NCBI GenBank assembly: GCA_035262825.1
Contig: DATFSB010000207.1
Location: forward strand, 1-42,794
From: Gemmatimonadales bacterium
Lineage (GTDB): Bacteria > Gemmatimonadota > Gemmatimonadetes > Gemmatimonadales > GWC2-71-9
Direction of reading: 5' to 3'
DNA length: 42,794 nucleotides
Shown: piece by piece, positions 6,409 to 37,224 of the stretch
Position numbering within the stretch: position 1 is the first letter of the stretch
How the letters are laid out: every line of letters starts with the position of its first letter
Program-made: the position numbers and the translations under genes
Notes under the pieces: generated by a model
What the model saw: only the letters and a program-made list of their open reading frames with translations
What the model was told of the DNA's origin: nothing
Databases searched by the model: none

Positions 6409-6425
6409 TCTGTACATTCTCCTCT

Positions 6426-10633: not shown

Positions 10634-10634
10634 C

Positions 10635-16286: not shown

Positions 16287-16291
16287 GCTTC

Positions 16292-21398: not shown

Positions 21399-23702
21399 TT
21401 ACGCACCGCCGCCCGCGTCGATCTCACGATGCCGCCGGCGATAGACCATGAAGATGATCGCGCCCAGCACGACGGGTCCTCCGATGGCGTACGGCAGCAC
21501 GCCGCCTGGGTTGAGCCGCGTGTACTTCGTGACGATCAAGTGCATTCCTGGGCTGGTCACCGGATGGCTCGTCGCTTCTGGCCCAGCCGGCGCCGGAATG
21601 CCGACGGTGTACACCATGAAATTGCCGTCGAGAATCGCGTTGACCCGCCAGGCGAGGCTGACCGACTGCCCGGGAGCGACCGGCTCGGTGTACTGCGTGC
21701 GCTGCGGCGACCAGTCTTCCGGGTCGACGACGTCCCCGCTCGCGTTGAGGTTGATGATGTTCATCGCCACGATGAGCGGCGGCGTCGGACTCGACCCGTT
21801 GTTGGTCAGAACGGTGTTGTATTCGATGGGAGTCCCCGCTCGGACCGTCTTGGCGGTGACGTCGATCGACAGCTGGACCTGCGGATCGGCCACCTGTTGC
21901 GCCAGCAGCGGGGCCGCTCCGAGCCCGAGCAGCGCCGCGAGGAGCAGCACGGCTGCAACCCGCTCCCGCGCCGCCTGGAAGAGGCGCGTGCGGCCGGCTT
22001 CCAGTCGCAGCTCGGGACCGGCGTACCAGAACAACAGTGCGAACGCGAAGACGGCGAACACGATGCACGACAACATCCACGACCACGCCCGGTCCAACGT
22101 CCAGTTGTTCACGAGGATGGCGGCGAGGAAGAATTTCGGCGCCGCTAACGGATTCAACCATTGAAAGAGGAGTCCCATGAATCCACCTTGGGCGTGCCCG
22201 GTGAGTTGAGTGGGGAGCAGGAAGAGGACGTACAGACACAGACTGATGAACAGGCTGGTCTTGTTCGAGTTGCACCAGAAACCCACGAACATCGCCATTG
22301 CCGTGAAGCCGAGCGTCAGCACGAGGCCGAGCCCCCCACCCCACAGCACTGCCTGGCTGAACACCTCGTCACCCTGCGACAGCACCCACATGTAGGGAAT
22401 GGCGATCAGCATCGCCACCGGCCCGGGGGACGCCGCCGCGAGGAACTTGCCGAGCACGATCTGGCGGCGACTGGTCGGGGTGAGCAGCAGCCCCTCGAGC
22501 GTGGCGCGCTCCCGTTCCCCGCTCAAGCTGTCGGCGCCGATAATGAGGCTGACGAACACGCTCGCGATCATCGCGGCTTTGGTGAGCTCGAACACCATCT
22601 CCTTCGGCGGGATGAGGCTCAGGCTCGAGTCACGCGCCGTGATGTAGGTGTAGATCCCCAGTACGATGGTGTAAGCGACGGTCAACTGCAGCGCTTTCCC
22701 TCCCACCCAGAGGTCGCTGAGCTCTTTCCTGAACACCACCCACCAGGTTGCGACGCTGCCCGCCGGTACCGGAGTGGCCAGGCGCTCGCCACGCGGTTTC
22801 GGAGCGGGAACGGGCAGTGCTGCTTCCGGCCAGACGGTGGTGGTGGGCGCCCGCCGGGACGGCCGCGGCGCTTTGGCGCTCCAGCGCTTCCAAAGGCGGC
22901 CTAACCGTGTTGCCATCGCAGCGTCGAGTCGCAGACGACGCGCGGCTAAGGCGAACAACACGAGCAGAACGATCGCGGCGAACGAACCCGCCAGGATGGG
23001 GAGATACCACGCCTCCGACACGGGCCGGCCCTGGCCCACCACCTTGCCAAGGAATTGCGCCGCTGCTTCCCATGGGTTCACGAACGTATAAAGCAGCGTG
23101 CGCCGCACCTCGATCACGGTTTGATGGATTCGCGGCCGGGACAACTCGGTCGGCAACAACAGCAGGAGGTAGAGACAGAGACTGACCATCATGCTGGTCT
23201 TGTTCGAGTTGCAGGCCATGCTGACGAGCAGGCCAATGCCGACCAACAGGGCGGCCAGGATCGTACCCAGCACGGTCCCCCACAGCAGCGCCTGCCAGAA
23301 GACCGGATTGCCTTTGGCAAGCACCGCCCAATAGGGGATCGCGATCATGAGCGCGACGGGCCAGGCGGAGAAGGCAGCGAGAAACTTGCCCACCGTGATC
23401 TGCCGCCGGCTCGCCGGGGTCAGGAGCAGCACTTCGAGCGTGGCCCGCTCCCGGTCGCCGGCGAAGGCGTCCGCCGCTGCCACGAGGCAAATGAACGCGG
23501 CGATGGCGATCGAATGCCGCACCATCTCCTGGATCATTTCGGGCACCGGCAGCAGCAAGGTGTCGGCGTTGCTGGCGAGCAGATAGGAGTATCCGCCCAG
23601 CAGCAGGCTGTAGATGAGGATCAAGTACAGTGCCTTGCCGCCGACCCACAGATCCCTGGTCTCGCGCCGGCAGACCACCCACCACGAAGTCGAAATAGCC
23701 AT
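21399..23702 (-). CDS. Fused double ABC-2 permease (two homologous 6-TM modules) + TM + Ig-like periplasmic domain + TM anchor, 767 aa
   Basis: Module 1 is aa 1-262 (WWVVCRRETRDLWVGGKAL, GDRERATLEVLLLTPASRRQI, CNSNKTS). Module 2 is aa 318-572 (WWVVFRKELSDLWVGGKAL, GERERATLEGLLLTPTSRRQI, CNSNKTS). An Ig-like domain spans aa 604-730, followed by TM VLPYAIGGPVVLGAIIFMVY. Confidence 0.85.
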   Translation of the reverse strand: MAISTSWWVVCRRETRDLWVGGKALYLILIYSLLLGGYSYLLASNADTLLLPVPEMIQEMVRHSIAIAAFICLVAAADAFAGDRERATLEVLLLTPASRRQITVGKFLAAFSAWPVALMIAIPYWAVLAKGNPVFWQALLWGTVLGTILAALLVGIGLLVSMACNSNKTSMMVSLCLYLLLLLPTELSRPRIHQTVIEVRRTLLYTFVNPWEAAAQFLGKVVGQGRPVSEAWYLPILAGSFAAIVLLVLFALAARRLRLDAAMATRLGRLWKRWSAKAPRPSRRAPTTTVWPEAALPVPAPKPRGERLATPVPAGSVATWWVVFRKELSDLWVGGKALQLTVAYTIVLGIYTYITARDSSLSLIPPKEMVFELTKAAMIASVFVSLIIGADSLSGERERATLEGLLLTPTSRRQIVLGKFLAAASPGPVAMLIAIPYMWVLSQGDEVFSQAVLWGGGLGLVLTLGFTAMAMFVGFWCNSNKTSLFISLCLYVLFLLPTQLTGHAQGGFMGLLFQWLNPLAAPKFFLAAILVNNWTLDRAWSWMLSCIVFAVFAFALLFWYAGPELRLEAGRTRLFQAARERVAAVLLLAALLGLGAAPLLAQQVADPQVQLSIDVTAKTVRAGTPIEYNTVLTNNGSSPTPPLIVAMNIINLNASGDVVDPEDWSPQRTQYTEPVAPGQSVSLAWRVNAILDGNFMVYTVGIPAPAGPEATSHPVTSPGMHLIVTKYTRLNPGGVLPYAIGGPVVLGAIIFMVYRRRHREIDAGGGA

Positions 23703-23717: not shown

Positions 23718-24551
23718 TCAGCGGGTCGCGGACAACCGAAACGGACTCGTTCCGCCCGATTGCAGACGGAGCCGTGGTCCGGCATACACGAACAGCAGGG
23801 CGACCACGACGATGAGAAACACGACCGGCCCTTGCAGCCAGTCGCCGTAGGTATGCAGGGTCTGGTTATTGACAATGAGCCGTTCCAGCAGCTGGTCGGC
23901 GGCCGCCAGCGGGTTCGAGCGCTGGAAGAACTTCCCGACTAGTCCCTTCTGCGCCCGGCCGGGTAAGAGCGCGGGCAAGAGGAACAGCAGGTACATCGAG
24001 AGACTGATGAACAGGCTGGTGCGATTGGAATTGGACCAGTAGCTGACGAGCATCCCGAGCCCCGTAAATCCGATGACCACCATCGTGCCGACGAAGACGG
24101 CGTACAGGAGCGCGGGCATGAGAATCGGATCGCCTTGGGAAACGACGAGCACGCACGGGAATGTGACGGCCAACGCCGCCGGCCACGGCGACATGCTGGC
24201 GAGGAACTTGCCGACGACGATCTGGGTCCGGCTGGCGGGCGTCAACAACAGCGTTTCCAGCAGCTCCCGGTCGCGCGCGCCGCTCAAGGTGTCGGCGCCG
24301 ATGAGCAGGCCCATGAACACACCGACGTACATGCAGGTCTGCAGGATCGACCAGACCATCTCTTTGGGGGGCGTCAAGTCCATCTGACTCCACCTGACCT
24401 GGAGATAGGTCAGCACTCCGATCACGACCGTGTACACGAGCAGCAGCGTCAGCGCTCGACCGCCGACCCAGAGCTCCTGCAGGTCGCGGCGGCAGACCAC
24501 CCACCAGGCCGCGAGACCCGGGCCGACAGGCGCCGGACGGCCGTCCCTCAC
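23718..24551 (-). CDS. ABC-2 family permease (module B), 277 aa
   Basis: I prefer the GTG at 24551, which forms a GTGA overlap with the upstream stop. Motifs: WWVVCRRDLQELWVGGRAL, GARDRELLETLLLTPASRTQI, SNSNRTS. Confidence 0.8.
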   Translation of the reverse strand: MRDGRPAPVGPGLAAWWVVCRRDLQELWVGGRALTLLLVYTVVIGVLTYLQVRWSQMDLTPPKEMVWSILQTCMYVGVFMGLLIGADTLSGARDRELLETLLLTPASRTQIVVGKFLASMSPWPAALAVTFPCVLVVSQGDPILMPALLYAVFVGTMVVIGFTGLGMLVSYWSNSNRTSLFISLSMYLLFLLPALLPGRAQKGLVGKFFQRSNPLAAADQLLERLIVNNQTLHTYGDWLQGPVVFLIVVVALLFVYAGPRLRLQSGGTSPFRLSATR

Positions 24552-25396
24552 GTGGGTCTCACCCGCAAGCGCCGCATACCAACTTCCAGCTGCAGGGACG
24601 GTCCGGCGTAGACGAAGAGCACGGCGAGCACGACGGCCGGCAGGAGAATCGGGCTGGTCATCCACAGCCACAGCTGTGAGGCCGGGGCGTCCGCCATGAT
24701 GCTCTCATGGAGCAAGCGACTGCTTGCGCCCAGCGGGTTGACCAATTGGAAGAGGTCGGACAGGCCTGTCGATTGGGCGCCGACTGTCGTGGTCGCCAGG
24801 CCCGAGTACTCGGACGGCAGAATCATGAGAAGGTAAAGGCCGATGCTGACGAGCATGCTGGGCTTGTTGGAATTGCTCCAGATGCTGGCGAGCATGCCGA
24901 TGCCGGCGAATGCAGGGGCGAGCAGCGTTCCCACGACCGGCCCCCACAGCAGCGCCGCCCGCAGCACCGGATCGCCCTTGGAGAGCACCACCCAGTACGG
25001 GATGGCGATCATCAACGTCGCCGGCCAGAGGGACAGGGCGGACAGGAATTTTCCCAAGATGATCTGCCGCCGGCTGGTGGGGGTGAGCAGCAGTCCTTCC
25101 AGCGTGGCGCGCTCGCGCTCGCCCGACACAGTGTCGGCACCGACGATCAGGCAGATGAACAATCCCACGAACACCGCAGCCTTGACGATCTCCAGCACCA
25201 CCTCTTTCAACGGCAGCAGCTGCAGCTCCGAGTTGCTCGCGAACAGGTACGCGTAGATCCCGAGCAGCAGGGTATAGATCAGGATCATGACCAGCGCTTT
25301 GCCGCCGACCCAGTGATCCCGCAGCTCCCGCCAGAACACGATGCGCCAGACCGGCGCCGCACGCGGCGCCGGTGAGCGATCGTCGGCTAAACTCAC
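24548..25396 (-). CDS. ABC-2 family permease (module A), 282 aa
   Basis: I prefer the GTG at 25396 (GTGA overlap with the ATPase stop). Motifs: VWRIVFWRELRDHWVGGKAL, GERERATLEGLLLTPTSRRQI, SNSNKPS. The longer track ORF, extending to 25747, would overlap the ATPase by 350 nt. Confidence 0.8.
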   Translation of the reverse strand: MSLADDRSPAPRAAPVWRIVFWRELRDHWVGGKALVMILIYTLLLGIYAYLFASNSELQLLPLKEVVLEIVKAAVFVGLFICLIVGADTVSGERERATLEGLLLTPTSRRQIILGKFLSALSLWPATLMIAIPYWVVLSKGDPVLRAALLWGPVVGTLLAPAFAGIGMLASIWSNSNKPSMLVSIGLYLLMILPSEYSGLATTTVGAQSTGLSDLFQLVNPLGASSRLLHESIMADAPASQLWLWMTSPILLPAVVLAVLFVYAGPSLQLEVGMRRLRVRPT

Positions 25397-26376
25397 TTGA
25401 TGCCCCCCGCCGTGAGCTGCAGGAAGACGTCTTGCAGCCGCCCGCCTTCGGGCTCGAAGCTCAAGACCGGGATCTCCGCGCGCAGCAACGTGTCGAGGAC
25501 GCGATTGTTGACAAACGGATCCGCCGCGGCGGCTTCGTCCAGCTCCACCCGCAACCACCCCGGCATGCCGCTCGCCGGCAGAACCTGGCGAACAGAGGCG
25601 ATGGTGCCGAGCTCCCGCTGGGCGTCTTCCAAGGACTCGGGCGGCACGCGAATCCGCATCATGTTCTGCTCGGTGCGCCCGATGACGTCGGCCACGGTCC
25701 CGGAGGCGACACATTCTCCGGAGCTCATGATGACGACATCGTCGCACACGCTTTCCACCTCCGGCAGGAGATGGCTGCAGAGAATGACACCCGCGCTGCG
25801 CTCTTCGGCGATCTGCTGTACCAGGCCGAGCAGCTCCTGTTGCCCACGCGGGTCGAGGCCGATGGTCGGCTCGTCGAGGAACACGACCACGGGGTCGTTC
25901 ACCAGCGCGCGCGCGATGCCGATCCGTTGCCGCATGCCGTGGCTGTACGTGCTCACGAGCGAGCGGGCGCGCTGCTTGAGTCCCACCTCCTCCAGCAGCT
26001 CCATCCCCACCGCCCGGGCATCGCTCGCGGTGCGTCCGTAGAGCTGACCGAAGTAGGTCAGGTACTCGATACCGGTCATTTGCTTCGGCAACCCGAAGCT
26101 CTCGGGCAGCACCCCGATGCGGCGGCGGATCTGATCGGGATATTCGTGGCTGATCCCGTCGACGGAGAAATGACCGGCGTCGGGCTCCATGATCGTGGTC
26201 AGGATGCGGATCGAGGTCGTCTTCCCCGCGCCGTTCGGTCCGAGGAAGCCCAGCAGCCGGCCCGCTTTGAGGACGAAGGAGAGCCCCCGCAGAGCCATTC
26301 TCGGTCCGTACGATTTCTGCAGACCTTCGGCAACGAGCACTTCGGTCCGCCGCGGAGTCGTTTCACTGTAGGTCAT
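25393..26376 (-). CDS. ABC transporter ATP-binding protein (ABC-2 type) with C-terminal accessory domain, 327 aa
   Basis: Walker A GPNGAGKTT, Q-loop, signature YSHGMRQR, Walker B VVFLDEPTIGLD, H-loop CSH. Confidence 0.9.
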   Translation of the reverse strand: MTYSETTPRRTEVLVAEGLQKSYGPRMALRGLSFVLKAGRLLGFLGPNGAGKTTSIRILTTIMEPDAGHFSVDGISHEYPDQIRRRIGVLPESFGLPKQMTGIEYLTYFGQLYGRTASDARAVGMELLEEVGLKQRARSLVSTYSHGMRQRIGIARALVNDPVVVFLDEPTIGLDPRGQQELLGLVQQIAEERSAGVILCSHLLPEVESVCDDVVIMSSGECVASGTVADVIGRTEQNMMRIRVPPESLEDAQRELGTIASVRQVLPASGMPGWLRVELDEAAAADPFVNNRVLDTLLRAEIPVLSFEPEGGRLQDVFLQLTAGGIK

Positions 26377-26402: not shown

Positions 26403-29400
26403 TCAGGGGTTTGCCAAGCTCGGCGCCGGCCCGCCGGCGCTCCGCGCGATGCCGAACCGCAGGTAGAGGCTGGGTGCCACGAACAGATTCAACAGCGTCG
26501 ACGTGATCAGACCGCCGAGGATGACGATCGCCATCGGATACTCGATTTCGTGCCCGGGCTTATCGCCGGCGATCAGCAGCGGCACGAGCGCGAGCCCGGT
26601 CGCCAAGGCCGTCATGAGAATCGGCGACAGCCGCTCGCGGGCGCCGCGCAACACCAGCGCCGGGCCGAGCGCTTCGCCTTCGAAACGCTCCAGGTGCTGG
26701 TAATGGCTCATCAGCATGATCTGGTTGCGCGCGGCGATGCCGAAGATCGTGAGGAAGCCGACCATCGACCCCAGCGAAATCACGTCGCCCGTGAAGTACA
26801 CGGCCAGCACGCCGCCGACGAGCGCGGAGGGCAGGGTCAGGAAGCCGAGCACCGCGAGCCGGGTGTTCTCGAACGAGGCGAGGAGGATCAGGAACACGCC
26901 GATCCCCGCCGCGATCGCGAAACTCAGCAGCCGGGTCTGGGCCTCGTCGCGCTCGGCGTACTCGCCCAGCACGACGGCGTGGTAGCCGAGCGGGAACTTG
27001 ATGTGCTCGAGGCGGTCGTCGACCTCATCCATCACGCCGGCCAGGTCGCTCCCGGTCACTTCGGCGCCGACGTCGATGCGGCGTGAATCGTTTTCACGGT
27101 AGATCACGCTCTGCGCCGGTACGATGCGGACGGTAGCGACGTCCCCCAGCCGCACCTGCCCGCCCTTGGGCGTGTCGATCGGCAGATTGCGGACGCTGGT
27201 GAGGCTCTGGCGGGTGGCGGGGGTGCTCCAGACGTTGACGTCGTACGCCTTGCCGTCCCGGAAAATGTCGCCCACCTCTTCCCCCGCGAGCAGCGTGCCC
27301 GACGCCCGCCGCACGTCGCCCGGTTTGAGCCCGTAGCGCTGTGCCGCGGCGAGATCGACTTCGACCTGAATCTGCGGGACCTGCGACTGCAGCTGCACGT
27401 TCAGGTCGGAGAGGCCGGCGATCCCCGCGAGCGAATCGCGCACCTCCTCCGCCTTTTCGTGGATCACGTCGAGGTTGGGTCCGTAGATCCGCACCACGAA
27501 CGTCTGACTCGAGCCCGACAGCACCTCGTCGATCCGCTCGTTGAGGTAGGTCTCGACGTTGTGGAACAGTCCGGGATAGCCGTAGACGACTCCCTCGATA
27601 CGGGAGATCGTCTCGTCGTAGTCCGCCGCCGGATCGACGCTGATCCAATTCTCCCCGAAGTTGACGCCGTTGAGCTCGTCGGCCAGCAGCGCCTGCCCGA
27701 TGTGCGAGCCGAAGTTGCGGACGCCGGGAATGGCGCGCAGCTCGCGGCTCAATCGCGTGACGATGCGCCGTTCCTCGTTCACGGAGCTGCCGGGCTTCGT
27801 GATCCAGTGGATCAGGAAATCGCGCTCCTTGAAATGGGGGAACAGCGACTCGCCGAGCAGCGGGACGATGGCGGCCCCCACCACCATGACGACGGCGGTG
27901 GCCAGGAACGCGTGCCGCGGACGCGCGACGATGCGCCGCAACGCCCGCTCGTAGATCCCCTGCAGCCACCGCACCAGAGGCTGGCGCTGGTGCTCAATGG
28001 GAGTGCGGCGCAGCAGCAGGTAGCACATCGCGGGCGTGACGGTGAGCGCGACGACCATGGATGCCAGCACCGCGAGCCCGTACGCGATCGCCATCGGCTG
28101 GAAGAAGGCGCCGGAGAGGCCGCCCATGAAGATGACGGGGATCACCACGACGGCGTCGATCAGCGTGGCGTGCACGATCGCCTGGCGCACCTCGAGCGAC
28201 GCCTCGAGGATGATGCGGGCGGTCGACAGGCTGCGCCCTTCCTGACGTGCCAGGCGCAGGCGCCGGGTGATGTTCTCGACGTCGATGATCGCGTCATCGA
28301 CCACGACGCCGATCGCGATCACGAAACCGGCCAACATCATGGTGTTGATGGTCGCCCCGCTGAGGTACAGCACCAGCGCGCCGGCCGTCAGCGACAGCGG
28401 GATGGCGACCATGCTGATCAGCGCAGTGCGCCACTGGAACAGGAAGGCGATGATCACCAGCATCACGAGGATGCAGCCGAGAATCAGGGCGTGCGACAGG
28501 TTGTCGAGCGCGACCTGAATGAAGTCCGCGGGGCGGAAAATCGTCGGATCGAGGTCGACGCCCTTCAACCCGGGGCGCAGCTCGTCGAGCGCCGCTTCCA
28601 CGCCGTGCGTGACGTCCAAGGTGTTGGCCCACGGGAACTTCTCGACGACCAGCATCAGTCCCGGACCGTCGTTGATGACGGCGTCGCCGAACAGCGGCCA
28701 CGTGTCCCATACGACGTCCGCCACATCGCTGAGTCGCAACGGAGTGCCGTCGCTCTTGCGCCGGTCCTGGATGGGCACCTGCCCGAGGTCCTCCGGCGAG
28801 GAAATGGCGAGAACGTGGCGGATGCCGAGCCGCTGGTTGGGCGTCTGGATGAAGCCGCCGGTGCCGATCACCGCTCCTTTGGAGAACTGCAGGATGCCCA
28901 CGTCGAGCGCGTCGGCGGTGACTTCCATGACCTGATCGAGCGAGACGCGCCGCTCCCGCAGCCGGTCGGGATCGACCTGCACCTGCGGCATCTTGATGCG
29001 CTCCCCCCAGATCGCCACGTTGGCGACCCCCGGCACGCCCAGCAGGCGCGCGCGGATCGTCCAATAGGAGATCATCGAGAGGTCCATCAGCGAGATGTCC
29101 TTCGACGACACGCCGATCTTCATCACGCGACCGGTCGAGGAGACCGGAGGGATGATGACCGGCGGCGCCGCCCAGGTCGGCAGCGTCGTGAGGACGTTGG
29201 TGAGACGCTCCTGCACGAGCTGCCGCGCCCGCACGACGTCGGTCCCAGGCTTGAAGAGCAGCTCGATCGACGACAGATCGGGGATCGACTTGGAGCGCAT
29301 CAGATCGAGCCGATCGAGACCGTTGAAGGCCTGCTCCAGCGGCACGGTGACCAGCGCCTCGACCTCCTCGGCGGACAGCCCGAGGCTCGGCGTCTGGACC

Positions 29401-29546
29401 TCAACCCGGGGCGGCGCAAACTCGGGGAACGCGTCCACTGGAGTGTTGGGGAGCTGGGCGATGCCATACACCATCATCGCGACGGCCCCGGCCAGCACGA
29501 TGAACCGGAACCGCAAGCTCGCGCCGACGATCGCTCGCATCATCAT
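26403..29546 (-). CDS. CzcA/CusA-like RND efflux permease (RND-1), 1047 aa
   Basis: PVDAFPEFAPPRVEVQTPSLGLSAEEVE N-terminus, TM4 AIGVVVDDAIIDVENITRRL and a 12-TM, two-large-loop layout. Confidence 0.9.
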   Translation of the reverse strand: MMMRAIVGASLRFRFIVLAGAVAMMVYGIAQLPNTPVDAFPEFAPPRVEVQTPSLGLSAEEVEALVTVPLEQAFNGLDRLDLMRSKSIPDLSSIELLFKPGTDVVRARQLVQERLTNVLTTLPTWAAPPVIIPPVSSTGRVMKIGVSSKDISLMDLSMISYWTIRARLLGVPGVANVAIWGERIKMPQVQVDPDRLRERRVSLDQVMEVTADALDVGILQFSKGAVIGTGGFIQTPNQRLGIRHVLAISSPEDLGQVPIQDRRKSDGTPLRLSDVADVVWDTWPLFGDAVINDGPGLMLVVEKFPWANTLDVTHGVEAALDELRPGLKGVDLDPTIFRPADFIQVALDNLSHALILGCILVMLVIIAFLFQWRTALISMVAIPLSLTAGALVLYLSGATINTMMLAGFVIAIGVVVDDAIIDVENITRRLRLARQEGRSLSTARIILEASLEVRQAIVHATLIDAVVVIPVIFMGGLSGAFFQPMAIAYGLAVLASMVVALTVTPAMCYLLLRRTPIEHQRQPLVRWLQGIYERALRRIVARPRHAFLATAVVMVVGAAIVPLLGESLFPHFKERDFLIHWITKPGSSVNEERRIVTRLSRELRAIPGVRNFGSHIGQALLADELNGVNFGENWISVDPAADYDETISRIEGVVYGYPGLFHNVETYLNERIDEVLSGSSQTFVVRIYGPNLDVIHEKAEEVRDSLAGIAGLSDLNVQLQSQVPQIQVEVDLAAAQRYGLKPGDVRRASGTLLAGEEVGDIFRDGKAYDVNVWSTPATRQSLTSVRNLPIDTPKGGQVRLGDVATVRIVPAQSVIYRENDSRRIDVGAEVTGSDLAGVMDEVDDRLEHIKFPLGYHAVVLGEYAERDEAQTRLLSFAIAAGIGVFLILLASFENTRLAVLGFLTLPSALVGGVLAVYFTGDVISLGSMVGFLTIFGIAARNQIMLMSHYQHLERFEGEALGPALVLRGARERLSPILMTALATGLALVPLLIAGDKPGHEIEYPMAIVILGGLITSTLLNLFVAPSLYLRFGIARSAGGPAPSLANP

Positions 29547-29989
29547 TCTTCTTCGAACTCCGATTCACTGCCGAACAGCTCGGCGGCCCCGACGGTCACG
29601 ACCGTTTCGCCGAGACCGGGACCGGTCGACAGCACCGCGAGATCGCCTGTGACCGATTCCACCGTGACCCGCGTGCGGATGTAGGTGAACGGCTCCGGGT
29701 TGGTGTACGCCCACGCCTGACCCTCCGCGTCATAGAGGATCGCGGCGTACGGGATCACCTTGCGCATCAGGCCGTTGACCGTGGACCGCCGCACACCGAC
29801 GGTTTGAATGTCGAGACGCCGGGCGGCTTCCTCGGTGAGGATGAGGCGGTTGACATCGTCGCCGGCGATCGGCTCGACCTTCACCGCCTTCGCCGTGCTC
29901 TCTTCGCTCGCCTGATTGCGACCGCACGCTACCAGCGGCAGCCAGGCGACGATCAGCGCCGCTCGCCACGCGGGTATCCGCGAACTCAT
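29543..29989 (-). CDS. Small lipoprotein resembling only the membrane-proximal part of an RND periplasmic adaptor, 148 aa
   Basis: ATG at 29989 is preceded by AGGAGG. Lipobox LPLVAC. LILTEEAARRLDIQTVGV is an MFP N-terminal strand. VIPYAAILYDAEGQAWAYT..FTYIRTRVTVESVTGDLAVLSTGPGLGETVVTVGAAELFGSE is an MFP C-terminal pattern. ATGA overlap with RND-1. Confidence 0.75.
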   Translation of the reverse strand: MSSRIPAWRAALIVAWLPLVACGRNQASEESTAKAVKVEPIAGDDVNRLILTEEAARRLDIQTVGVRRSTVNGLMRKVIPYAAILYDAEGQAWAYTNPEPFTYIRTRVTVESVTGDLAVLSTGPGLGETVVTVGAAELFGSESEFEEE

Positions 29990-30002
29990 GCGTTCCTCCT
30001 GA

Positions 30003-33000
30003 TCACGATTTAGTGACGCCCAACGCGGCAACGTCCGCCAGGCCGGCGGGTAATTCCACGTCGCCCCGTTGCGCGGCTGTGACTTGCAGTACCAGGTACA
30101 TCGAGGGCAGCACGAACAGGGAGATCAGCGTCGCGGTCACGAGGCCGCCCAGCACCACGACCACCGCGCCACGCACGACTTCGAGCCCGGGGCGGTCGCC
30201 CGCCAACAGCGTGGGAAGGAGCGCCAGGGCAGTGACTACCGCGGTCATGAGGATCGGCGCCGCGCGCTCGACCGCCCCGCGCATCACGAGCCCCGCGCCG
30301 AACGGCTCGCGACCCTCAGCTTCCAGCTGGTGATAGCGCGAGAAGAGCTGCAGGGTGTTGCGGATGGTGAAGCCGAGCACGATGAGCAATCCGACGAGCG
30401 ATCCGATGGAGATCGTGTCTCCGCGCGCGGCCGCCGCCGCGAGTCCGCCCACCAGCGCGGCCGCTGCGGTCGCGAGGCCGATCCCGGCGAGTCGCCAGCT
30501 CCCGATCGCCGCCTGCAACAGCAGCAGCATTCCAATCATGGCCGCCACCGCCAGCAGCAATGCCCGTTGATGGGCTGTCTCGCGCTCGGCGAACCCGCCG
30601 AGCACCTCCGCGTGATGCTCCAACGGCATTGGAACGGTCTGCAGGCGGGCCTCGATGTCACCAGCGACGGTGCCGAGATCGCGCCCGCGCACTCCGACGA
30701 TCACGTCGAGGTAGCGCTTCACGGCCTCGTGCCGAATTGCGCGGGCACTCGACACGATGCGGACTTGCGCCACGTCTCCCAGCCGGACGCTGCCGCCGCC
30801 AGGCGTATCGATCATCAGGTCGCGCACACTGTTGAGGCTGTGGCGCGTTGCCGGCTCCCCCCACACTACCACGTCGAAGACCTTTTGCTCTTCGAACAGA
30901 TTGCCGACCTGCAGTCCGGAAAACATCGTGGCCGCGGAACGCCGCACGTCACCGGGCTTGATGCCGTGACGCTGTGCCGCAGCGAGATCGACCTCGACCT
31001 CCAGCACCGGTTCTTGCGCCGGCTGATCCAGCCGCGCGCTGGTCACGCCTCCGACCTCGCTGACCGCTTTCGCCACAGCACCCGCCGCGGTGCGCAGCAC
31101 CGCATCGGCGTCGCCGTAGACGCGGACAACGATGGAGTCACGGGCCTGCGCGTTCAGCGGCTCCGTGCGCTCGCTGAGGTACGTCTCCACTCGCGGACGC
31201 AGGCCGGGGTAGCCATTGACCACCGTGCGGACGGCGGCGACGGTGCGATCGTAATCCGCCGTCGAATCGACGCTGACCCAAAGCTCGGCGGAATTGACGT
31301 TGACGACCTGGTCGCCGAAGATCGCCCGGCCCAGGTGTGCACCGACATTGGAGACGCCGCGGATGGACCGCAGCTCGAGGCTGACGCGTCCGGAGATGCG
31401 GCTCATCTCGGGCTGCGACGTGCCCGGGGCGCTGGTGAGATGGACCAGCAGGTCCCGCTCGGCGAACTTGGGCAACGACCCGCCGGAGCGCCCCACGAGC
31501 GGCAGCAGGGCGAATCCGACGATCAGAACCGGCGCGACAATCGCCACCGGACGCCACGGCCGCTGCAGCGTTCGCGCCAGAGCTCCTTCGTACCACGCCT
31601 GCAGCCGTCGGACGAACGGCACCTCGCGCGACGGCGCGGGCGCGCGCGGCAACAGCACGAGACCGAGGGCAGGCGTGACCGTCAGGGCGACCACCATCGA
31701 CGCCAGGACGGCGAGGACATACGAGCCCCCGAACGGGCGCCAGAACGCCGCGGGCACGCCGCCGAAGACGAGCAGCGGCAGCAGGGACAGCAGCAGGATC
31801 AACGTGGCGAACACCGCCGCACCGCGCAGCTCGGCGACGGCGGCGACGACGGCAGCCGCGGGCGATTCGCCGCGACCGTCGCGGAAGCGGCGCCGCATGG
31901 CGTCGACGTGAAGGATCGCGTCGTCGACGATCACGCCGAGTGCCATGAGCATCCCGCCAAGCACCACGACGTTGACCGTCGCACCGCGCAGATAGAGGAC
32001 CCAGGCGCCGGCAATGAACGAGGTGGCGATGGCGCTGATCGCAATCAGCGTCGCACGCCAGTCGGAGAAACCGATGGCGATCGCAATGGCCGCAAGCGCG
32101 AATCCGATGAGCGCGACCCAGCCGAGGTTGTGCAACGCCGATTCGATGAAGCCGGCGGGCCGGAAGATCGACGAATTCACCTCGAGGCCGGTCATACCGG
32201 GGCGCAGCTCGGCGAGGGCCGCTTCGACGCCGCGCGTCACATTGTGCAGATTCGCACCGGGGAAGCGGTCGACGACCAGGAGCAGGTTGGCGCTGCCGTT
32301 CGTCAGCGCGTCGCCGATGAGCGGCTGGTGTCCTTCGACTACGTCGGCCACGTCGCCCAGGCGCACGCCGGTGGCTTCGATCGGCACCTGCGCCAGACCT
32401 TCCGGCGACACGATCGGCAGGATGTGGCGGATCCCGAGCCGCTGATTGGCGTTGTCGATGAAGCCGCCGGTGCCTGGCGTCGAAGCCTCAACGAAGCTGA
32501 GCGACGAGACCCACAGCGCGTTGCCGGTGGTTTCGAGCACCTGCAGCAACGACACGCGGCGATCGTGGAGCCGTTTCGGATCGACCAGCACCTGCAGCTG
32601 GCGGTCGCGCTGCCCCCAGATGGCCACGTTCGCGACGCCTTGGACGCCGAGCAGGCGCGGAGCGATGGTCCAGCGCGCCAGGACCGACATCTGGATCGGG
32701 GACAACGTCTTCGAGGACAACCCGATCAACATGACCCGGCTCGTGGACGACATCGGCTGCAGCATTGTGGGCGGCCGGGACACGTGCGGCAGGGCAAACG
32801 CCTGGGTGAGCCGCTCCGACACCATCTGACGGGCTCGCATCAGATCCGTCCCAGGCCGGAAAGTCAGGACGATCGACGACAAGCCCGGGACCGATTCCGA
32901 ACGCAGCGACTCGAGCCACGGTACGCCATTGAGCAGGTCCTGCTCCAGCCCGAGCGTTACCAGCTGCTCCACCTCCTGGGCAGAGAGTCCCAGGGCTTCG

Positions 33001-33152
33001 GTCTGTATCTCGACGCGCGGCGGCGAGAATTCGGGCAGCACGTCGACCGGCAGCTCGCGCAGCTGCCGCACGCCGACGACGAGCAGCGCCACGGCGATGG
33101 CCACCACCGTCACGCGATACTTGGTGCTCCAGTTCACGAGCGAACCCATCAT
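30003..33152 (-). CDS. CzcA/CusA-like RND efflux permease (RND-2, paralog of RND-1), 1049 aa
   Basis: Internal ATG at 33152 (MMGSLVNWSTKYRV...) overlaps the upstream stop (ATGA). Motifs: PVDVLPEFSPPRVEIQTEALGLSAQEVE and TM4 ALGVIVDDAILHVDAMRRRF. The upstream 93 aa of the track ORF is Arg-rich junk. Confidence 0.9.
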   Translation of the reverse strand: MMGSLVNWSTKYRVTVVAIAVALLVVGVRQLRELPVDVLPEFSPPRVEIQTEALGLSAQEVEQLVTLGLEQDLLNGVPWLESLRSESVPGLSSIVLTFRPGTDLMRARQMVSERLTQAFALPHVSRPPTMLQPMSSTSRVMLIGLSSKTLSPIQMSVLARWTIAPRLLGVQGVANVAIWGQRDRQLQVLVDPKRLHDRRVSLLQVLETTGNALWVSSLSFVEASTPGTGGFIDNANQRLGIRHILPIVSPEGLAQVPIEATGVRLGDVADVVEGHQPLIGDALTNGSANLLLVVDRFPGANLHNVTRGVEAALAELRPGMTGLEVNSSIFRPAGFIESALHNLGWVALIGFALAAIAIAIGFSDWRATLIAISAIATSFIAGAWVLYLRGATVNVVVLGGMLMALGVIVDDAILHVDAMRRRFRDGRGESPAAAVVAAVAELRGAAVFATLILLLSLLPLLVFGGVPAAFWRPFGGSYVLAVLASMVVALTVTPALGLVLLPRAPAPSREVPFVRRLQAWYEGALARTLQRPWRPVAIVAPVLIVGFALLPLVGRSGGSLPKFAERDLLVHLTSAPGTSQPEMSRISGRVSLELRSIRGVSNVGAHLGRAIFGDQVVNVNSAELWVSVDSTADYDRTVAAVRTVVNGYPGLRPRVETYLSERTEPLNAQARDSIVVRVYGDADAVLRTAAGAVAKAVSEVGGVTSARLDQPAQEPVLEVEVDLAAAQRHGIKPGDVRRSAATMFSGLQVGNLFEEQKVFDVVVWGEPATRHSLNSVRDLMIDTPGGGSVRLGDVAQVRIVSSARAIRHEAVKRYLDVIVGVRGRDLGTVAGDIEARLQTVPMPLEHHAEVLGGFAERETAHQRALLLAVAAMIGMLLLLQAAIGSWRLAGIGLATAAAALVGGLAAAAARGDTISIGSLVGLLIVLGFTIRNTLQLFSRYHQLEAEGREPFGAGLVMRGAVERAAPILMTAVVTALALLPTLLAGDRPGLEVVRGAVVVVLGGLVTATLISLFVLPSMYLVLQVTAAQRGDVELPAGLADVAALGVTKS

Positions 33153-34042
33153 GGGGATGTCATCCCTTCCACTGGCGGCGTGTGCGCGTAAACGCTGCTG
33201 CTGCGTTGATAGCCACTCTGGTCCAGCTTTTTCGCTTCCATTCGCGCAGCGGCGAGCGCCTGCGCATCGAGCCGCTCGACCCGCGCGAGCTCCAGGACTT
33301 CCTGCGTTTTTTCGCCCGCGCCGCGCCACCCGACGCGGACATTGCCGGTGCCGCGGGCGTAGTACTTGAGCTGCGTCGCGTCCGGCTCGCCGGAGCTCGT
33401 CTCGGCGATCACCAGCGCGCTGTCGTAGCACGCGGCGGGGACACAGGTGCGCTGCCCCATCTGGTCGACTTGCCCACGATCAGTCCACTCGACCGCCGGT
33501 CCCCATCCTTCGGCATAGCTGGGCGTCCCGAGGCGCGGAGCGGCGGGCATCATGATTCCCGCGCTCGCCCCCTCGAGGCCGTGGATCCAGGGCCGAGCGG
33601 CGACGAATTTTCCGTCCTCGTACTCCTCCGGGTATTCCCCGAGGTACCACACCGTGCCCGTGGAGTCCTGCGCGTAGAAGGCCAGCTCCGCCTCCACCAG
33701 CTCGCCGTCGTTGAAGTCGGTGTCCCAGGTGACGGCGGTGCGCACGCCGCCGATGACCTTGGTGAGGTCGGTGACCGTGACGACGATGCGATGCGGGACT
33801 TTCTTGCCGTCGTCCTCGACCGCCGTGCCTTCGTAGACGAACCGCGTCCCCGGTGCGAGCGGCATCCAGGGGTTGTTGATGGCGCTGGGTCGGAGGAAGC
33901 GGCCGGCATCGAAGGCCGGCAGATCGGGCGTCTGCGGCGGTGCTGCCTGCGCCGTGCGATCGGGGGCCCGCCCGCAGGCGAGCGTCAGCGCCGTAGCGAC
34001 GGCGAGGGCGGCTGCTGCCGCGATCCTACAGGCGGTAGGCAT
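33149..34042 (-). CDS. Lipoprotein of unknown function, 297 aa
   Basis: ATG at 34042. Lipobox ALTLAC. NPWMPLAPGTRFVYEG...VTDLTKVIGGVRTAVTWD...AFYAQDSTGTVWYLGEYPEE. No MFP motifs were recognised. Confidence 0.7.
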   Translation of the reverse strand: MPTACRIAAAAALAVATALTLACGRAPDRTAQAAPPQTPDLPAFDAGRFLRPSAINNPWMPLAPGTRFVYEGTAVEDDGKKVPHRIVVTVTDLTKVIGGVRTAVTWDTDFNDGELVEAELAFYAQDSTGTVWYLGEYPEEYEDGKFVAARPWIHGLEGASAGIMMPAAPRLGTPSYAEGWGPAVEWTDRGQVDQMGQRTCVPAACYDSALVIAETSSGEPDATQLKYYARGTGNVRVGWRGAGEKTQEVLELARVERLDAQALAAARMEAKKLDQSGYQRSSSVYAHTPPVEGMTSP

Positions 34043-36923
34043 ACTGTAGCTTGACCAGCAGCTGGTTGGAGTCGAACGCGAAGCGGTCATTGAGATTACG
34101 CAGCATGTTGTGATTGAAGACGACGAACAGGTCGCCGAGGGGATTGAAGGTCCAGCGGAGCCGCGTGTTGGTGCCGAGGTTGCGGCTTTCGTTGTCGTAT
34201 TGCAGGAAGCTCGACACTTGCAAGTCGGCCGAGACGTTCACCTGCACCCGGCCGCTGTAGAGCCGCTGCACGAAGTCTCCAACCGGCAGCCGCGCGCTGT
34301 TGCGCTCCCAGCCCAGCTCCGCGGTGAGGAAAGCCGACGGCTTCATGCGCACCGTCAGCGCGAGACTGTGGAGGTGACCGCCGTAGAACGAGCCGGTCGA
34401 CCACGTCGCCTCGCCGTTGAAACGGCGTTTGGCCGCGAGCGCTCCCTGCACGGTGTAGCGGGTCCAGCGGTACGAACCCGCGGGCACGACGACCGACGTG
34501 GTATCGCTGCTGAACAGCTCGAAGTCTTCGGTCGGGCGATCGCCCTGCGGCTCGATGTCGAACTCGAAGCGGTCGCCGCTTTCCAGCTGCCAGTCGAGCG
34601 GCTTGAAGGACAGGATGTAGCTCTCCCACCGCCCATGCAGGTCGCTGATCACCGCCGGGTTGAACTCGAAGAACATCTGGCGCACCAGCGGCCACGCCGG
34701 GCGCGGCCGGAACCCGGCCTCGACCTGCCACAGCTGCACGCCCGTGCGGGGGACGAAGGACAGCGACGGGTTGAAGCGCTCGCCGATGCGCTTGTAGCGC
34801 AGCGAGACGTCCCACAAGTCATTGGGATAATCGATCATCCCGCCGAAGGCGTTGTCGCTCCCGATGTCATCGCGGTGGTTGTGCAGCCCCCACACACCCA
34901 TGATGAGATTCTTGTCGCCCTTGAATTCGGACGTCTGGAAGGTGAAGTCGGCCCCGGTCATCCAGCTGCCGGCGATGCCGAGGGGATCGCCGAAGGTGGC
35001 GATCAGTCCCGCCGACGATTCCGACAGCACGTTCTGCTTGACGCGAAACGCGCCCATCGTGGCGTCGGTCGGCAGCGAATCGACGCCGCGCGTGCGCACG
35101 GCCAGGGCGCCGACATTGGTGTTGCCCATACGACCGTTGAGCTTGCCGCCGACGGTGATGGGGATCTGGAGTTGATCCTCAGCCTCGCCCTGCAGTCCGA
35201 TGCGGCGGCTGTGAAACGCGATCAGATCCTCGTCGTTGCCGACGCCGAACTCGAAGATGTCCGCGCCTTCGAGGAAGAACGTCCGCTTCTCGGGGAACAG
35301 CAGGTCGAACCGGGTCAGATTGGTCTGCCGCGCGTCCACCTCGGTCTCGCCGAAGTCGGTGTTCACGGTGAGCGAGGCGATCATGTTGGGACCCAGCTTC
35401 TTCGTCGCATCGAGACTGCCCTGGGTCTTGTAGACCCGCTCGGCGCCGGGGGCGGGCCGGTTGGCGTTGCCGACGATGCCGGGGCGGATGCTCAGCCCGA
35501 GACCGAGGTTGAACGCCGGCAGATCGGTGAGGTGCCCCGAATGGCTCGTCTGGTAGATCTCGTAGTCGCGGTTGGCCCCGGCCCAGCGACTGACCTCCAA
35601 CAGGCGCTGGACACGGCGCTGCACGTTGAAGCCCCACCCGGTCAGGTCCTGCTTGAAGCTCAGCGTCTTGATCGGGATGCGGATCTCGACGCTCCAGCCG
35701 CGCGCATCGCGCGCCGTGGCGGCTTCCCAGATACCGTCCCAATCGGTGTTGACGTCCTCGCCGTAGGCGGAGACGAGCCCATCGAACCGCGCGCCGTTGG
35801 GATTGACGGCGAAGACGTAACCGGTGCGCCCGTCCTCGAACGGATCGAGCACCAGCATGACGTGATCCTCGAGCTCGAGATCGAAGTCGCGCGTCTTCGC
35901 GAAGGCGACGATACCGGCGGGGTTCGAATCGCGGCACAGGATGCCGAAGATCAGCTCGCTGGGATTCGCGAGCACCTTCACGATCGTTTGGCCGGCCGGC
36001 CTGGCGCCCTCGGTCGGCTCGATGGTGACGAGGTCGACGATCGAATCCGCGCTGCTCCACGCCGGCTCGTCGAGGCGGCCGTCCAGCGTCACTTCGCTCT
36101 CGAACGTACTGGCGCGCAGGGTGGTCAGCGCCGCGGCGGCGGGCGCTCCCTCCGCCGCGCCGACGTCGAACGTGGCGCTCGTCACGGGACCGAGCCCCGG
36201 TGCCTTGACGGTGAGCGAGTACGTCCCCGGCTTGTCGATACGGAGATCGCCGAACGCGGCGACGCCGGCCACGGCGGTGACGGTGGTGGTGCCCGTCAGC
36301 TCGGCCTCCTCGTCGCCCGTTCCATCGGTGATCTCGACGGTCACGTTCGCGGTGAAGCTCTCGAGCGTCTGGCCGGTGGCGTCCCGCACTGTGATAGCGA
36401 CGGTCGGCTGAATGGGTGCGCCCGCCGCGGTGTGGCTCGGCTGCACGGTGAACTCGGCGCGCGCTGCTCCAGCGCCCGACCCTCCACCCGGTGCAGCCGT
36501 CACGACGGAGGTCGCGACGGCGACCGGCGCCGCCGCGGCAGCCGGGGCCGTCACGGCGAACGGCGCGCTCGTGACCTCGCCCACGCCCTCGACGGTAGCC
36601 GTGAGCTTGTACTCGGCTGCGGCGCTGTCGATGGAGAGCGCACTGAAGATTGCGACGCCGGCGACGGCGGTGACCTTCGTCGTGCCTGAAAGCTCCGCGT
36701 CTTCATTCCCAGAACCGTCGGAGATCTCCAGGGTAACGGCGCGCGCGAACGTCGTCACGGTCTGACCGGCCGCGTCGACCACACTCACCTGTACCGCCGG
36801 TGTGATCGTCGCGCCCGCAACCGTAGCGCTCGGTTGGACGGTGAAGACGAGATGCAGCGAGTCGAGCGGGACGGCGGGGCGTGAGACGAGCACGGTGCTG
36901 AACAGCAGGATTGTGGAGAGCAT
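34026..36923 (-). CDS. Outer-membrane DUF5916/CBM9-like barrel protein with two N-terminal Ig-like repeats, 965 aa
   Basis: ATG at 36923 is preceded by GGAGG. The CBM9-like segment is LDGRLDEPAWSSADSI...DHVMLVLDPFEDGRTGYVFAVNPNGARFDG...GWSVEIRIPIKTL. The DUF5916-like segment is TVNTDFGETEVDARQTNLTRFDLLFPEKRTFFLEG. The C-terminus is an aromatic-rich barrel end, ...LQYAYRL. Confidence 0.75.
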   Translation of the reverse strand: MLSTILLFSTVLVSRPAVPLDSLHLVFTVQPSATVAGATITPAVQVSVVDAAGQTVTTFARAVTLEISDGSGNEDAELSGTTKVTAVAGVAIFSALSIDSAAAEYKLTATVEGVGEVTSAPFAVTAPAAAAAPVAVATSVVTAAPGGGSGAGAARAEFTVQPSHTAAGAPIQPTVAITVRDATGQTLESFTANVTVEITDGTGDEEAELTGTTTVTAVAGVAAFGDLRIDKPGTYSLTVKAPGLGPVTSATFDVGAAEGAPAAAALTTLRASTFESEVTLDGRLDEPAWSSADSIVDLVTIEPTEGARPAGQTIVKVLANPSELIFGILCRDSNPAGIVAFAKTRDFDLELEDHVMLVLDPFEDGRTGYVFAVNPNGARFDGLVSAYGEDVNTDWDGIWEAATARDARGWSVEIRIPIKTLSFKQDLTGWGFNVQRRVQRLLEVSRWAGANRDYEIYQTSHSGHLTDLPAFNLGLGLSIRPGIVGNANRPAPGAERVYKTQGSLDATKKLGPNMIASLTVNTDFGETEVDARQTNLTRFDLLFPEKRTFFLEGADIFEFGVGNDEDLIAFHSRRIGLQGEAEDQLQIPITVGGKLNGRMGNTNVGALAVRTRGVDSLPTDATMGAFRVKQNVLSESSAGLIATFGDPLGIAGSWMTGADFTFQTSEFKGDKNLIMGVWGLHNHRDDIGSDNAFGGMIDYPNDLWDVSLRYKRIGERFNPSLSFVPRTGVQLWQVEAGFRPRPAWPLVRQMFFEFNPAVISDLHGRWESYILSFKPLDWQLESGDRFEFDIEPQGDRPTEDFELFSSDTTSVVVPAGSYRWTRYTVQGALAAKRRFNGEATWSTGSFYGGHLHSLALTVRMKPSAFLTAELGWERNSARLPVGDFVQRLYSGRVQVNVSADLQVSSFLQYDNESRNLGTNTRLRWTFNPLGDLFVVFNHNMLRNLNDRFAFDSNQLLVKLQYAYRL
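36162..36854 (-). repeat. Internal tandem duplication encoding two ~100-aa Ig-like domains
   Basis: LVFTVQPSATVAGATITPAVQVSVVDAAGQTVTTFARAVTLEISDGSGNEDAELSGTTKVTAVAGVAIFSALSID aligns with EFTVQPSHTAAGAPIQPTVAITVRDATGQTLESFTANVTVEITDGTGDEEAELTGTTTVTAVAGVAAFGDLRID. Confidence 0.7.
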
Positions 36924-37224
36924 ATCCGTCCTCCGCAGCAAATTCTCTGCGCGCATTTCCCCGTGCGTGCGTCGTCCAACCCGGCTAACGGCGGAGTAAC
37001 GGTGGGGTCGAACGTTCCGCGTCACCATACATGCGCGGATAGGACGACGTATAACTTTTGGTAGCATGGTTCTATTGCCGAGCCCGCGCATCATCGCGGC
37101 CGTTCTGCCACAGAAGGGTGCGACATTTTCTCCTATCGGCATCACCGCGCGCGGGCTATTTTTTCGCCTGTCGCATCGCCGTCTATCGCAAGACCGAGAG
37201 TGAACCGGGCGCGAGACATCGCCT

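Follow-up and report, generated by a model that had tools for sequence, protein, structure and literature searches.

Paired RND permeases and an adaptor reduced to its membrane-proximal domain in a Gemmatimonadales genome: the possible core of an envelope export module without a TolC-like channel

Two genes for permeases that belong to the RND (resistance-nodulation-division) superfamily, designated RND-1 and RND-2, and the gene for a 148-aa lipoprotein (sLP) located between them were analysed in a stretch of 42,794 nucleotides from a Gemmatimonadales bacterium (contig DATFSB010000207.1 of the assembly GCA_035262825.1); "the window" below means this whole stretch. The analysis suggests, with a probability of roughly 45%, that a conserved envelope export module has its core in this region and works without a TolC-like channel, by means of a mixed RND trimer and a stump adaptor, with a cation as the substrate. 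The genes of the core are the following:

26403-29546, minus strand: RND-1, downstream-type RND permease, 1047 aa (PF00873, 734 bits)
29543-29989, minus strand: sLP, 148-aa lipoprotein, an adaptor cut to its membrane-proximal (MP) domain (by fold, long relatives and profile)
30003-33152, minus strand: RND-2, upstream-type paralogue, 1049 aa (PF00873, 556 bits)

RND-1 and RND-2 are full-length permeases of the superfamily and true paralogues. Their matches to PF00873 (ACR_tran, cutoff 28 bits) span profile positions 5-1019 and 3-1020, respectively, of 1021, and the end-to-end alignment of the pair with ZneA, CusA and AcrB is collinear. The BLASTP alignment of the two proteins (861 bits, 50% identity, 1031 columns) contains the blocks GTGGFIQTPNQRLGIRHVL / GTGGFIDNANQRLGIRHIL and VDDAIIDVEN / VDDAILHVDAM, and bears out an earlier note on this DNA, which had presented the two as clear paralogues with the right lengths and coordinates. 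The gene run is a translationally coupled operon: the start codon of RND-1 overlaps the stop codon of sLP as ATGA, the start codon of RND-2 overlaps in the same manner (ATGA) the stop codon of the preceding gene, encoding another lipoprotein, LP300 (both junctions were read directly), and RND-2 is followed by sLP after a 13-nt spacer with AGGAGGA. The best solved relatives of RND-1 are ZneA (6e-106, 358 bits) and CusA (6e-86), followed by pumps of the HAE-1 family, and the top NCBIfam model for both permeases is TIGR00914 (CusA/CzcA), with 555.8 bits for RND-1 and 397.3 bits for RND-2 and a curated cutoff of 701.45 bits; the HAE-1 model TIGR00915 gives 355 bits against a cutoff of 940. The clade to which the permeases belong is uncharacterised; only generic names are found for it in the sources, the JGI label being "CzcA family", and literature searches on the RND clade, DUF5916 and MP-only adaptors found nothing specific. 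A large phylogeny of the families HME (heavy metal efflux), NFE and HAE-1 excluded Actinobacteria and Chloroflexi by design (PMC10872679).

The small lipoprotein is an adaptor of the HlyD family reduced to its MP domain, as indicated by three independent lines of evidence, namely its fold, its long relatives and a profile search against PDB sequences. Scans of sLP with Pfam and NCBIfam gave zero matches, HlyD, lipoyl and hairpin models included, and the family consists of uniform lipoproteins of about 148 aa with an invariant lipobox cysteine (Cys22). The AlphaFold 2 model of sLP (predicted local distance difference test score, pLDDT, 81.6) has about 32 top fold matches in the PDB that are all periplasmic adaptors; the best of them is the construct of SilB described as "N-terminus plus membrane-proximal domain" (5a4g), and further matches include CusB, TMexC, AcrA, MexA, ZneB, BesA and TriA, with a common core of about 60 residues at 1.6-1.9 Å. 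A search with the sLP profile against 1.84 billion representative proteins revealed 2388 relatives, many of them 240-336 aa long, in which the profile matches N- and C-terminal pieces that flank an insert of 100-190 residues; in four of five tested relatives of 321-336 aa, both HlyD_D23 and HlyD_3 recognise this insert with scores higher than their Pfam cutoffs. Among PDB sequences, the top match of the profile is to the MP segments of the fused TriA-TriB adaptor. Together, the matches fit an MP domain made up of strands from the N- and C-terminal parts.

In the alignment, the family members of 336, 281, 255 and 148 aa line up as nested deletions. Relatives of 321-336 aa retain the lipoyl, barrel and MP domains, those of 255-281 aa the barrel and MP domains, and the 148-aa form the MP domain alone, with its whole loss at the junction of residues 71 and 72; a 336-aa form is found in the module at the very place of sLP. 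An alpha-hairpin is absent from every length class in this alignment, and thus no version of sLP is able to reach an outer-membrane factor (OMF). The earlier note had placed the lipoprotein correctly between the RND genes as something that merely separates them; the position stands, and the adaptor folds, the long relatives and the TriA-TriB match make it an adaptor remnant instead of a mere separator. A CusF-like chaperone and a random lipoprotein were considered for sLP and were ruled out, since the top folds are all adaptors and the long relatives carry HlyD domains. Reviews of adaptors describe BesA, which has no hairpin, and EmrA, which has no MP domain, and no MP-only adaptor (PMC4446572, PMC13328181).

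The functional residues of the permeases were compared in a MAFFT alignment of 73 downstream-type and 71 upstream-type orthologues with CusA, AcrB, MdtB and MdtC of E. coli. The CusA segment LLYMPSTLPG aligns to FLIHWITKPG in RND-1 and to LLVHLTSAPG in RND-2, the same placement that had been proposed by eye. The methionine triad of CusA (M573, M623 and M672) and its relay D405 / E939 / K984 are known (PMC8092243); the triad positions are occupied by H580, F630 and V675 in RND-1 and by H571, S621 and L666 in RND-2, and the relay positions read D / R / I; all the methionine pairs of CusA are replaced as well, bar the equivalent of M391. A Cu(I) site of the CusA type is excluded, and the triad and relay residues together rule out a CusA-type Cu/Ag pump, in agreement with the earlier supposition that this is not a Cu/Ag pump of the known type. 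The fourth transmembrane segment (TM4) reads AIGvvvDDAiidVEN in RND-1 and ALGvivDDAilhVDA in RND-2. The same note had called TM4 of RND-1 CusA-like, and this has to be corrected, since VDDAI belongs to the AcrB/MdtBC pattern AIGX3DDAX3VEN, whereas CusA has VDAAIVMIEN. The alignment that it had proposed as a check yields an AcrB-type relay, no methionine triad and no standard HME signature: D417, D418, R940, R972 and T979 of RND-1 correspond to D407, D408, K940, R971 and T978 of AcrB, with Arg replacing Lys. The relay of RND-2 is intact in the window (D410, D411, R931, R963 and T970), and its cleft residues have diverged (Q615, P665, Q748, V993 and H415).

The putative substrate cleft of RND-1 has a different affinity from its relay. 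The proximal Zn(II)-site of ZneA is composed of E136, D602, E610, D654 and D658 (PMC7060636, supplementary table), and the corresponding positions of RND-1 are R140, E624, E632, E670 and E674, that is, carboxylates at four positions of the five, with all five residues invariant in the 73 orthologues; in RND-2 they are R139, Q615, E623, E661 and P665. The CusA methionines M573, M410, M755 and M1009 are replaced in RND-1 by invariant H580, D422, E757 and E1002, and there are charged cleft residues common to RND-1 and CusA (and ZneA) that have no counterpart in AcrB. A signature of 17 relay and cleft sites of RND-1, DDDERNRTEHHEEEEEE, is identical in 69 of the 73 orthologues. By these comparisons RND-1 reads as a hybrid that joins an HAE-1-type engine to an HME-type charged cleft.

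The distribution of the module was analysed by scanning the sLP profile over one genome per species of the GTDB, which gave 336 confirmed matches, and the best 80 loci were fetched; since these loci were chosen via sLP, RND pairs lacking it would escape. The gene order RND-2 / sLP / RND-1 is met again in no fewer than 336 species representatives of about 10 phyla, and thousands of metagenomic homologues of the RND lineage exist; the hosts are hundreds of species of soil bacteria, many of them with a single membrane. The fetched loci come from Actinomycetota (24, including Kribbella alba JCM 14306 and Amycolatopsis sp. NPDC049868), Gemmatimonadota (21), Chloroflexota (19), Planctomycetota (5), Bacteroidota (3), Eisenbacteria (2) and others (6); 44 of the 80 belong to Actinomycetota, Chloroflexota or Dormibacterota, and the set includes a locus from a metagenome-assembled genome of Gemmatimonadales that is 95-99% identical to the window. 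An RND gene is present on both flanks of sLP in 65 of the 80 loci; in the other 15, with a single exception (L051, see below), a contig end truncates the locus or an RND gene is frameshifted. The sLP gene always immediately precedes the RND-1-type gene. The distance from sLP to the RND-2-type gene upstream of it is at most 400 nt in 51 of the 65 complete loci and 2.5-5.2 kb in the remaining 14, where genes of an ABC-2 transporter are found in the gap.

A few of the fetched loci have an unusual arrangement. Locus L051 from Vicinamibacterales is unique among the fetched loci: its sLP (8001-8459) adjoins ABC and ABC-2 genes, and the 8 kb to each side are free of RND genes. Two loci, L072 from Thermoleophilaceae (650-11530) and L039 from Gemmatimonadales (1991-11550), contain two units of sLP and an RND-1-type gene each, in the orders sLP-RND1-RND2-sLP-RND1 or sLP-RND-ABC-permease-sLP-RND1, and the module has therefore been re-duplicated there.

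The neighbour-joining tree, which was built from one alignment with CusA, AcrB, MdtB and MdtC as references and no TCDB set, places the RND proteins of the module in one clade, without any of the four references, and divides this clade into two subclades (71+2 and 70+1 members) that correspond to gene position; since the subclades track gene position, the duplication is older than the spread across phyla. The RND-1 type is the more conserved of the two, with a mean identity of 64% and up to 77% between Gemmatimonadales and Chloroflexota, and the RND-2 type has a mean identity of 54% and variable cleft sites. The canonical relay is kept in 40 of the 71 RND-2-type proteins, and in eight loci the relay Asp of the RND-2 type is changed to Tyr together with a change of the partner Arg to Cys; the loci with relay loss belong to Gemmatimonadota, Planctomycetota and Eisenbacteria. 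A protein that is relay-dead and still full-length and conserved is a poor fit to an autonomous proton-driven pump and is easily understood as a subunit of a mixed trimer, and this relay loss is the strongest argument, although an indirect one, that favours a heteromer. A sliding-window comparison of conservation across the paralogues also found paralogue-specific, internally conserved stretches near the inter-protomer loop, which are too indirect to serve as evidence for a heteromer. The heteromeric pump proposed in the earlier note is thus strengthened by the two ancient clades, their co-occurrence, the degeneracy of RND-2 and the loss of its relay, and stops short of being proved.

Pfam scans of every plausible open reading frame (ORF) in the 42.8-kb window found no OEP (PF02321), HlyD, lipoyl or hairpin domain, which upholds the earlier observation that neither a full-length adaptor nor an OEP-family gene is encoded there. 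Among the recurrent neighbours in the 80 loci there is no OEP either, and the barrels linked to the module in diderm hosts are porin-like. The window itself holds a TonB-dependent receptor plug, porins and an MlaD / MlaF / MlaE-like lipid-transport cluster (2657-5117, minus strand; MlaD and ABC_tran domains, MlaE with 227 bits), the last of which confirms a diderm host. It had gone unnoticed before that the majority of the hosts are monoderm; monoderm phyla supply more than half of the fetched loci, with the same gene order, and the OMF is missing because most hosts have no second membrane.

The pair is also part of a larger conserved module, likewise overlooked in the first reading of the sequence, with a LolA-like lipoprotein, an ABC-2 transporter, outer-membrane barrels and a two-component system. 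Its other genes in the window are as follows:

33149-34042 (ORF to 34090), minus strand: LP300, lipoprotein of ~297 aa with a LolA-like predicted fold
25393-26376, minus strand: ABC transporter ATPase, DrrA / GldA / NodI-like (PF00005; TIGR01188 229 bits, below cutoff)
24548-25396, minus strand: ABC-2 permease 1, NosY / GldF-like (PF12679)
23718-24671, minus strand: ABC-2 permease 2 (PF12679)
21399-23702, minus strand: fused double ABC-2 permease, 767 aa (two PF12679 stretches)
19954-21045, minus strand: outer-membrane barrel of the Porin_5 family (PF16930, 1.5e-22)
19755-19943, minus strand: small membrane protein of about 62 aa (tblastn matches in eight Gemmatimonadota module loci)
18918-19754, minus strand: 278-aa signal-peptide protein ending ...MFNF, presumed outer-membrane barrel (no Pfam match)
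34026-37145 (start uncertain), minus strand: large exported protein, Ig-like repeats plus a DUF5916 region at the C-terminus, presumed outer-membrane barrel (DUF5916, 1.9e-9)
37225-38949, plus strand: divergent sensor kinase (domain scan: 6TM PilS-like, GAF, HisKA_3, HATPase)
38952-39590, plus strand: NarL / LuxR-type response regulator (Response_reg and GerE domains)

LP300 is present in 41 of the 80 module loci, at times duplicated into a protein of about 500 aa; its homologues number more than 3700, with identities of 50-90%, and two cysteines are invariant. Searches with Pfam and NCBIfam gave no match for this protein, and its profile found nothing meaningful among PDB sequences. The AlphaFold 2 model (pLDDT 83.8) resembles the open beta-barrels of the LolA superfamily and ends in a helix, and Foldseek matched it to YmcC-like 3fzx (7e-6), BDI_3050, DUF1849, LolA3, VioE, RseB and EPDR1, with E-values from 7e-6 to 1e-3 and a probability of about 1.0, yet with TM-scores of 0.22-0.47, and so the predicted LolA-like fold is assigned with moderate confidence.

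The ABC ATPase occurs in 30 of the 80 module loci, sometimes between RND-2 and sLP, and in about 30 loci it goes together with NosY/GldF-like ABC-2 permeases; in the window, its stop codon is overlapped by the GTG start of ABC-2 permease 1 at 25396. The C-terminal 182 aa of the fused permease, composed of an extracytoplasmic domain and a final transmembrane anchor, have no Pfam match and are conserved in loci of Gemmatimonadota and Chloroflexota and, more weakly, of Actinomycetota. An RND-1-type permease joined in frame to the ABC ATPase of the module by a linker of about 35 residues was met in a single protein from an NCBI metagenome contig (P0346, 1375 aa); it could be a Rosetta-stone fusion, which is topologically possible with the cytoplasmic C-terminus of the RND protein, or the product of a lost stop codon.

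The outer-membrane and regulatory genes and the 62-aa membrane protein are additions to the module in Gemmatimonadota. The DUF5916 protein has the same position in the Gemmatimonadales loci L001, L004 and L008-L011 and is found in 10 of the 80 loci overall, the Porin_5 barrel comes after RND-1 in seven Gemmatimonadota loci, and the 278-aa barrel-like protein is module-adjacent in 11 loci (46-67% identity); other diderm hosts have Porin_O_P or MetA-like barrels in place of this Gemmatimonadota set. The sensor kinase is located at the same divergent position in L004 and L009, and the response regulator has an 82% identical counterpart in L004. Pfam assigned the neighbours of the module in Amycolatopsis and Kribbella solely to ABC-2 genes, unrelated enzymes and regulators of a generic kind; a metal-specific one was not among them.

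Taken together, the features of the core can be arranged in a mechanism. RND-1 and RND-2 would assemble as one heteromeric trimer, with RND-1 as the conserved working subunit that has an AcrB-type relay and a cleft of invariant His and carboxylates, and with RND-2 as a specialised partner that is degenerate in part. The stump adaptor may clamp onto the porter domain and stabilise or activate it, bridging to nothing. Proton influx would drive the lifting of a cationic substrate from the membrane or the periplasmic face, and the substrate, for which a divalent metal ion held by E624, E632, E670, E674 and H580 is the likeliest candidate, would leave via the funnel of the pump into the wall or the periplasm; in a diderm host, it may cross the outer membrane through the DUF5916, Porin_5 and 278-aa barrels. 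LP300 and the NosY-like ABC-2 transporter would be accessory parts. A cation, probably a divalent metal, is favoured as the best guess because of the affinity to HME pumps and the invariant His/carboxylate cleft.

Several observations weigh against this picture. Both permeases score too low for TIGR00914 (556 and 397 bits vs a cutoff of 701), and neither fits the TM4 signatures of HME pumps, which are DFGX3DGAX3VEN in HME1/2/3a and AVGX3DAAX3IEN in HME4 (PMC3637150, PMC7060636 supplementary table), the HAE-1 type being found instead; on these two grounds, HME-RND membership was ruled out. The relay of RND-1 is of the HAE-1 and not of the HME type, and the position of ZneA E136 in its cleft is held by an invariant Arg (R140). 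Rfam scans beside the module in the window and 35 loci found no riboswitch that would reveal the substrate, nor did the same scanned regions contain a metal-specific regulator. The co-retention of two paralogues fits two homotrimers too, and the linked partners (LolA-like lipoprotein, ABC-2 exporter, HisKA_3 kinase of the intramembrane type) typify systems of lipid or hydrophobe transport and envelope stress more than metal systems. The cross-phylum conservation of RND-1 is also unusually high for an accessory metal-resistance pump.

In a rival reading, the same architecture would handle a lipid, a lipoprotein or another hydrophobe, extracted or flipped by the ABC-2 transporter, carried by LP300 and exported by the RND pair, as in the OMF-free MmpL, HpnN and aryl-polyene export systems. 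Such a cargo would suit the match of the LP300 model to LolA-superfamily folds (YmcC-like, LolA3, RseB, VioE, EPDR1), the translational coupling of LP300 to RND-2 and its presence in about half of the loci (41/80), the ABC-2 genes embedded within the module, the AcrB-type relay and TM4, the HisKA_3 kinase with a 6TM sensor and the extreme conservation of RND-1, which suggests a housekeeping role in the envelope. It is at odds with the invariant charged cleft of RND-1, which is like that of CusA and ZneA and unlike that of AcrB, the pockets of HAE-type pumps being hydrophobic; the nearest relatives are HME pumps, and the fold match of LP300 is weak by TM-score (0.34-0.47). A hydrophobic cargo is a serious competitor and, on the present evidence, a somewhat improbable one. 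At the other end of the range, a Cu(I)/Ag(I) pump of the CusA type, suggested by the rank of CusA as the second-best solved relative and by the JGI label "CzcA family", has a negligible chance of being correct, given the replacement of the methionine triad, the methionine pairs (except the M391 equivalent) and the relay residues E939/K984 and the lack of CusF, CusB and CusC.

The composition of the pump can be questioned independently of its cargo. Two homotrimeric pumps, RND-1 and RND-2, acting on different substrates or in series and co-regulated in one operon, would agree with the mostly homotrimeric state of RND pumps, with the separation of the genes by 2.5-5 kb and intervening ABC genes in 14/65 loci, with the direct coupling of sLP to RND-1 only and of RND-2 to LP300, and with the intact relay of RND-2 in the window. 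Such an arrangement is unlikely in view of the eight loci where the RND-2 type has no relay D/R pair and is still full-length and conserved, the absence of the invariant cleft residues from RND-2, and the fact that, given enough flanking sequence, the two types always occur together, bar L051, where neither is present. Much less probable still is a canonical tripartite pump that draws its full adaptor and its TolC-like channel from genes at other places in the genome; the host of the window is diderm, judging from the TonB-dependent receptor, MlaFED and porins, and OMF genes are often unlinked, e.g., tolC in E. coli, but the module's own adaptor homologue is hairpin-free in every length class, more than half of the fetched loci are in monoderm phyla and show an identical gene order, and the linked outer-membrane proteins of diderm hosts are porin-like and never OEP.

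The mixed trimer with a stump adaptor and a cationic substrate is retained as the preferred reading, and the module, which would work like an RND proton antiporter, is classed most suitably as an RND lineage of its own, marked by paired permeases and a minimal adaptor. Of the defining HME features that were tested, it lacks a score above the curated cutoff, the TM4 signature, the methionine triad and a linked full adaptor and OMF; it is also below the HAE-1 cutoff and is no orthologue of MdtBC. A bolder version, in which this is a new family-level lineage with an obligate heteromer of a proton-driven subunit and a sometimes relay-dead partner, an MP-only activating adaptor, a LolA-like carrier and a mechanotransducer ABC-2 transporter, providing a TolC-independent route in monoderm and diderm phyla, is a speculative proposal that is more doubtful than the preferred reading. 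RND pumps are understood almost wholly from tripartite systems of Proteobacteria, and the lineage described here is widespread, strongly conserved and largely at home in single-membrane bacteria. It offers a natural minimal system for the role of the adaptor MP domain on a transporter that has nothing to bridge, and a candidate second, independent case beside MdtBC of paralogue specialisation in RND trimers, including lineages that have lost the relay. The automated labels "CzcA family heavy metal efflux" attached to RND proteins of the module lack the support of any defining HME feature. As Kribbella alba JCM 14306 and Amycolatopsis sp. NPDC049868 are hosts available in culture, questions about the module are directly testable.

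The rest of the window contains several features that are separate from the module. A fluoride riboswitch (RF01734; 10541-10615, plus strand; 53 bits vs a gathering score of 34) lies directly 5' of an ORF for a CrcB-like fluoride channel (to 11009, plus strand; motif GFCGGFTTMSTF) and is antisense to a spurious 5' extension of an NAD synthetase ORF. A DUF4384 protein (13414-14796, minus strand) has a long low-complexity tail rich in Tyr, Gly, Pro and Arg, YYDPYYYDPFYYG, with repeated SRPRSSGGSYSGGDNGGGRRD units that originate from an 81-nt tandem repeat of 2.6 copies (13547-13773). An ORF of 824 aa (15998-18469, plus strand) is an unusual fusion of thioredoxin / AhpC-TSA-like and calcineurin-like metallophosphoesterase domains. 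A gene for tRNA-Ala(CGC) is found near the left end of the window (1140-1213, minus strand), and a truncated gene for an Nramp (MntH-like) metal transporter runs off the right end (42017-42793, minus strand).

Among the known systems, the ZneCAB / CzcCBA pumps are related most closely by their permease, ZneA (4k0e) being the best solved relative of RND-1, with the complete docking and porter architecture and with carboxylates at four of the five proximal Zn(II)-site positions, and a two-component regulator adjoins the module as well. They differ in the TM4 pattern (AIGX3DDAX3VEN in the RND proteins of the module vs DFGX3DGAX3(V/M)EN), in the Arg at the position of E136, and in that the module has two permeases, an MP-only adaptor, no linked OMF and mostly monoderm hosts. 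The likeness to CusCFBA comprises about 27% identity and the shared charged cleft residues E567, D569, E584, D617, E625 and D742, whereas the module has H/F/V in place of the triad, D422 and E1002 at the positions of the transmembrane Met pairs, and R and I in the relay.

The MdtABC / MuxABC systems, with their B2C heterotrimers, resemble the module in having two anciently duplicated RND genes in one operon, in the TM4 pattern and in the Arg and Thr positions of the relay, the TM10 Lys being Arg in the module. The identity of the permeases to MdtBC is 22-24%, they form a separate neighbour-joining clade that points to an independent duplication, MdtA has all four adaptor domains and docks to TolC, and MdtBC is confined to Proteobacteria; the heteromer of the module is a proposed one. 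Modular loss of adaptor domains is shared with BesA of Borrelia, which has no hairpin, and with EmrA, which has no MP domain. Like BesA, the sLP relatives of 321-336 aa have no hairpin and retain the lipoyl, barrel and MP domains, while sLP itself is reduced much further, to the MP domain only, and is the converse of EmrA. HpnN and MmpL3 also work with no OMF or bridging adaptor and have periplasmic lipid-binding lipoproteins as partners, but they belong to HAE-2 / HAE-3 and have no AcrB-type docking domain, whereas the RND proteins of the module are full ACR_tran permeases of about 1050 aa with an HME-like cleft.

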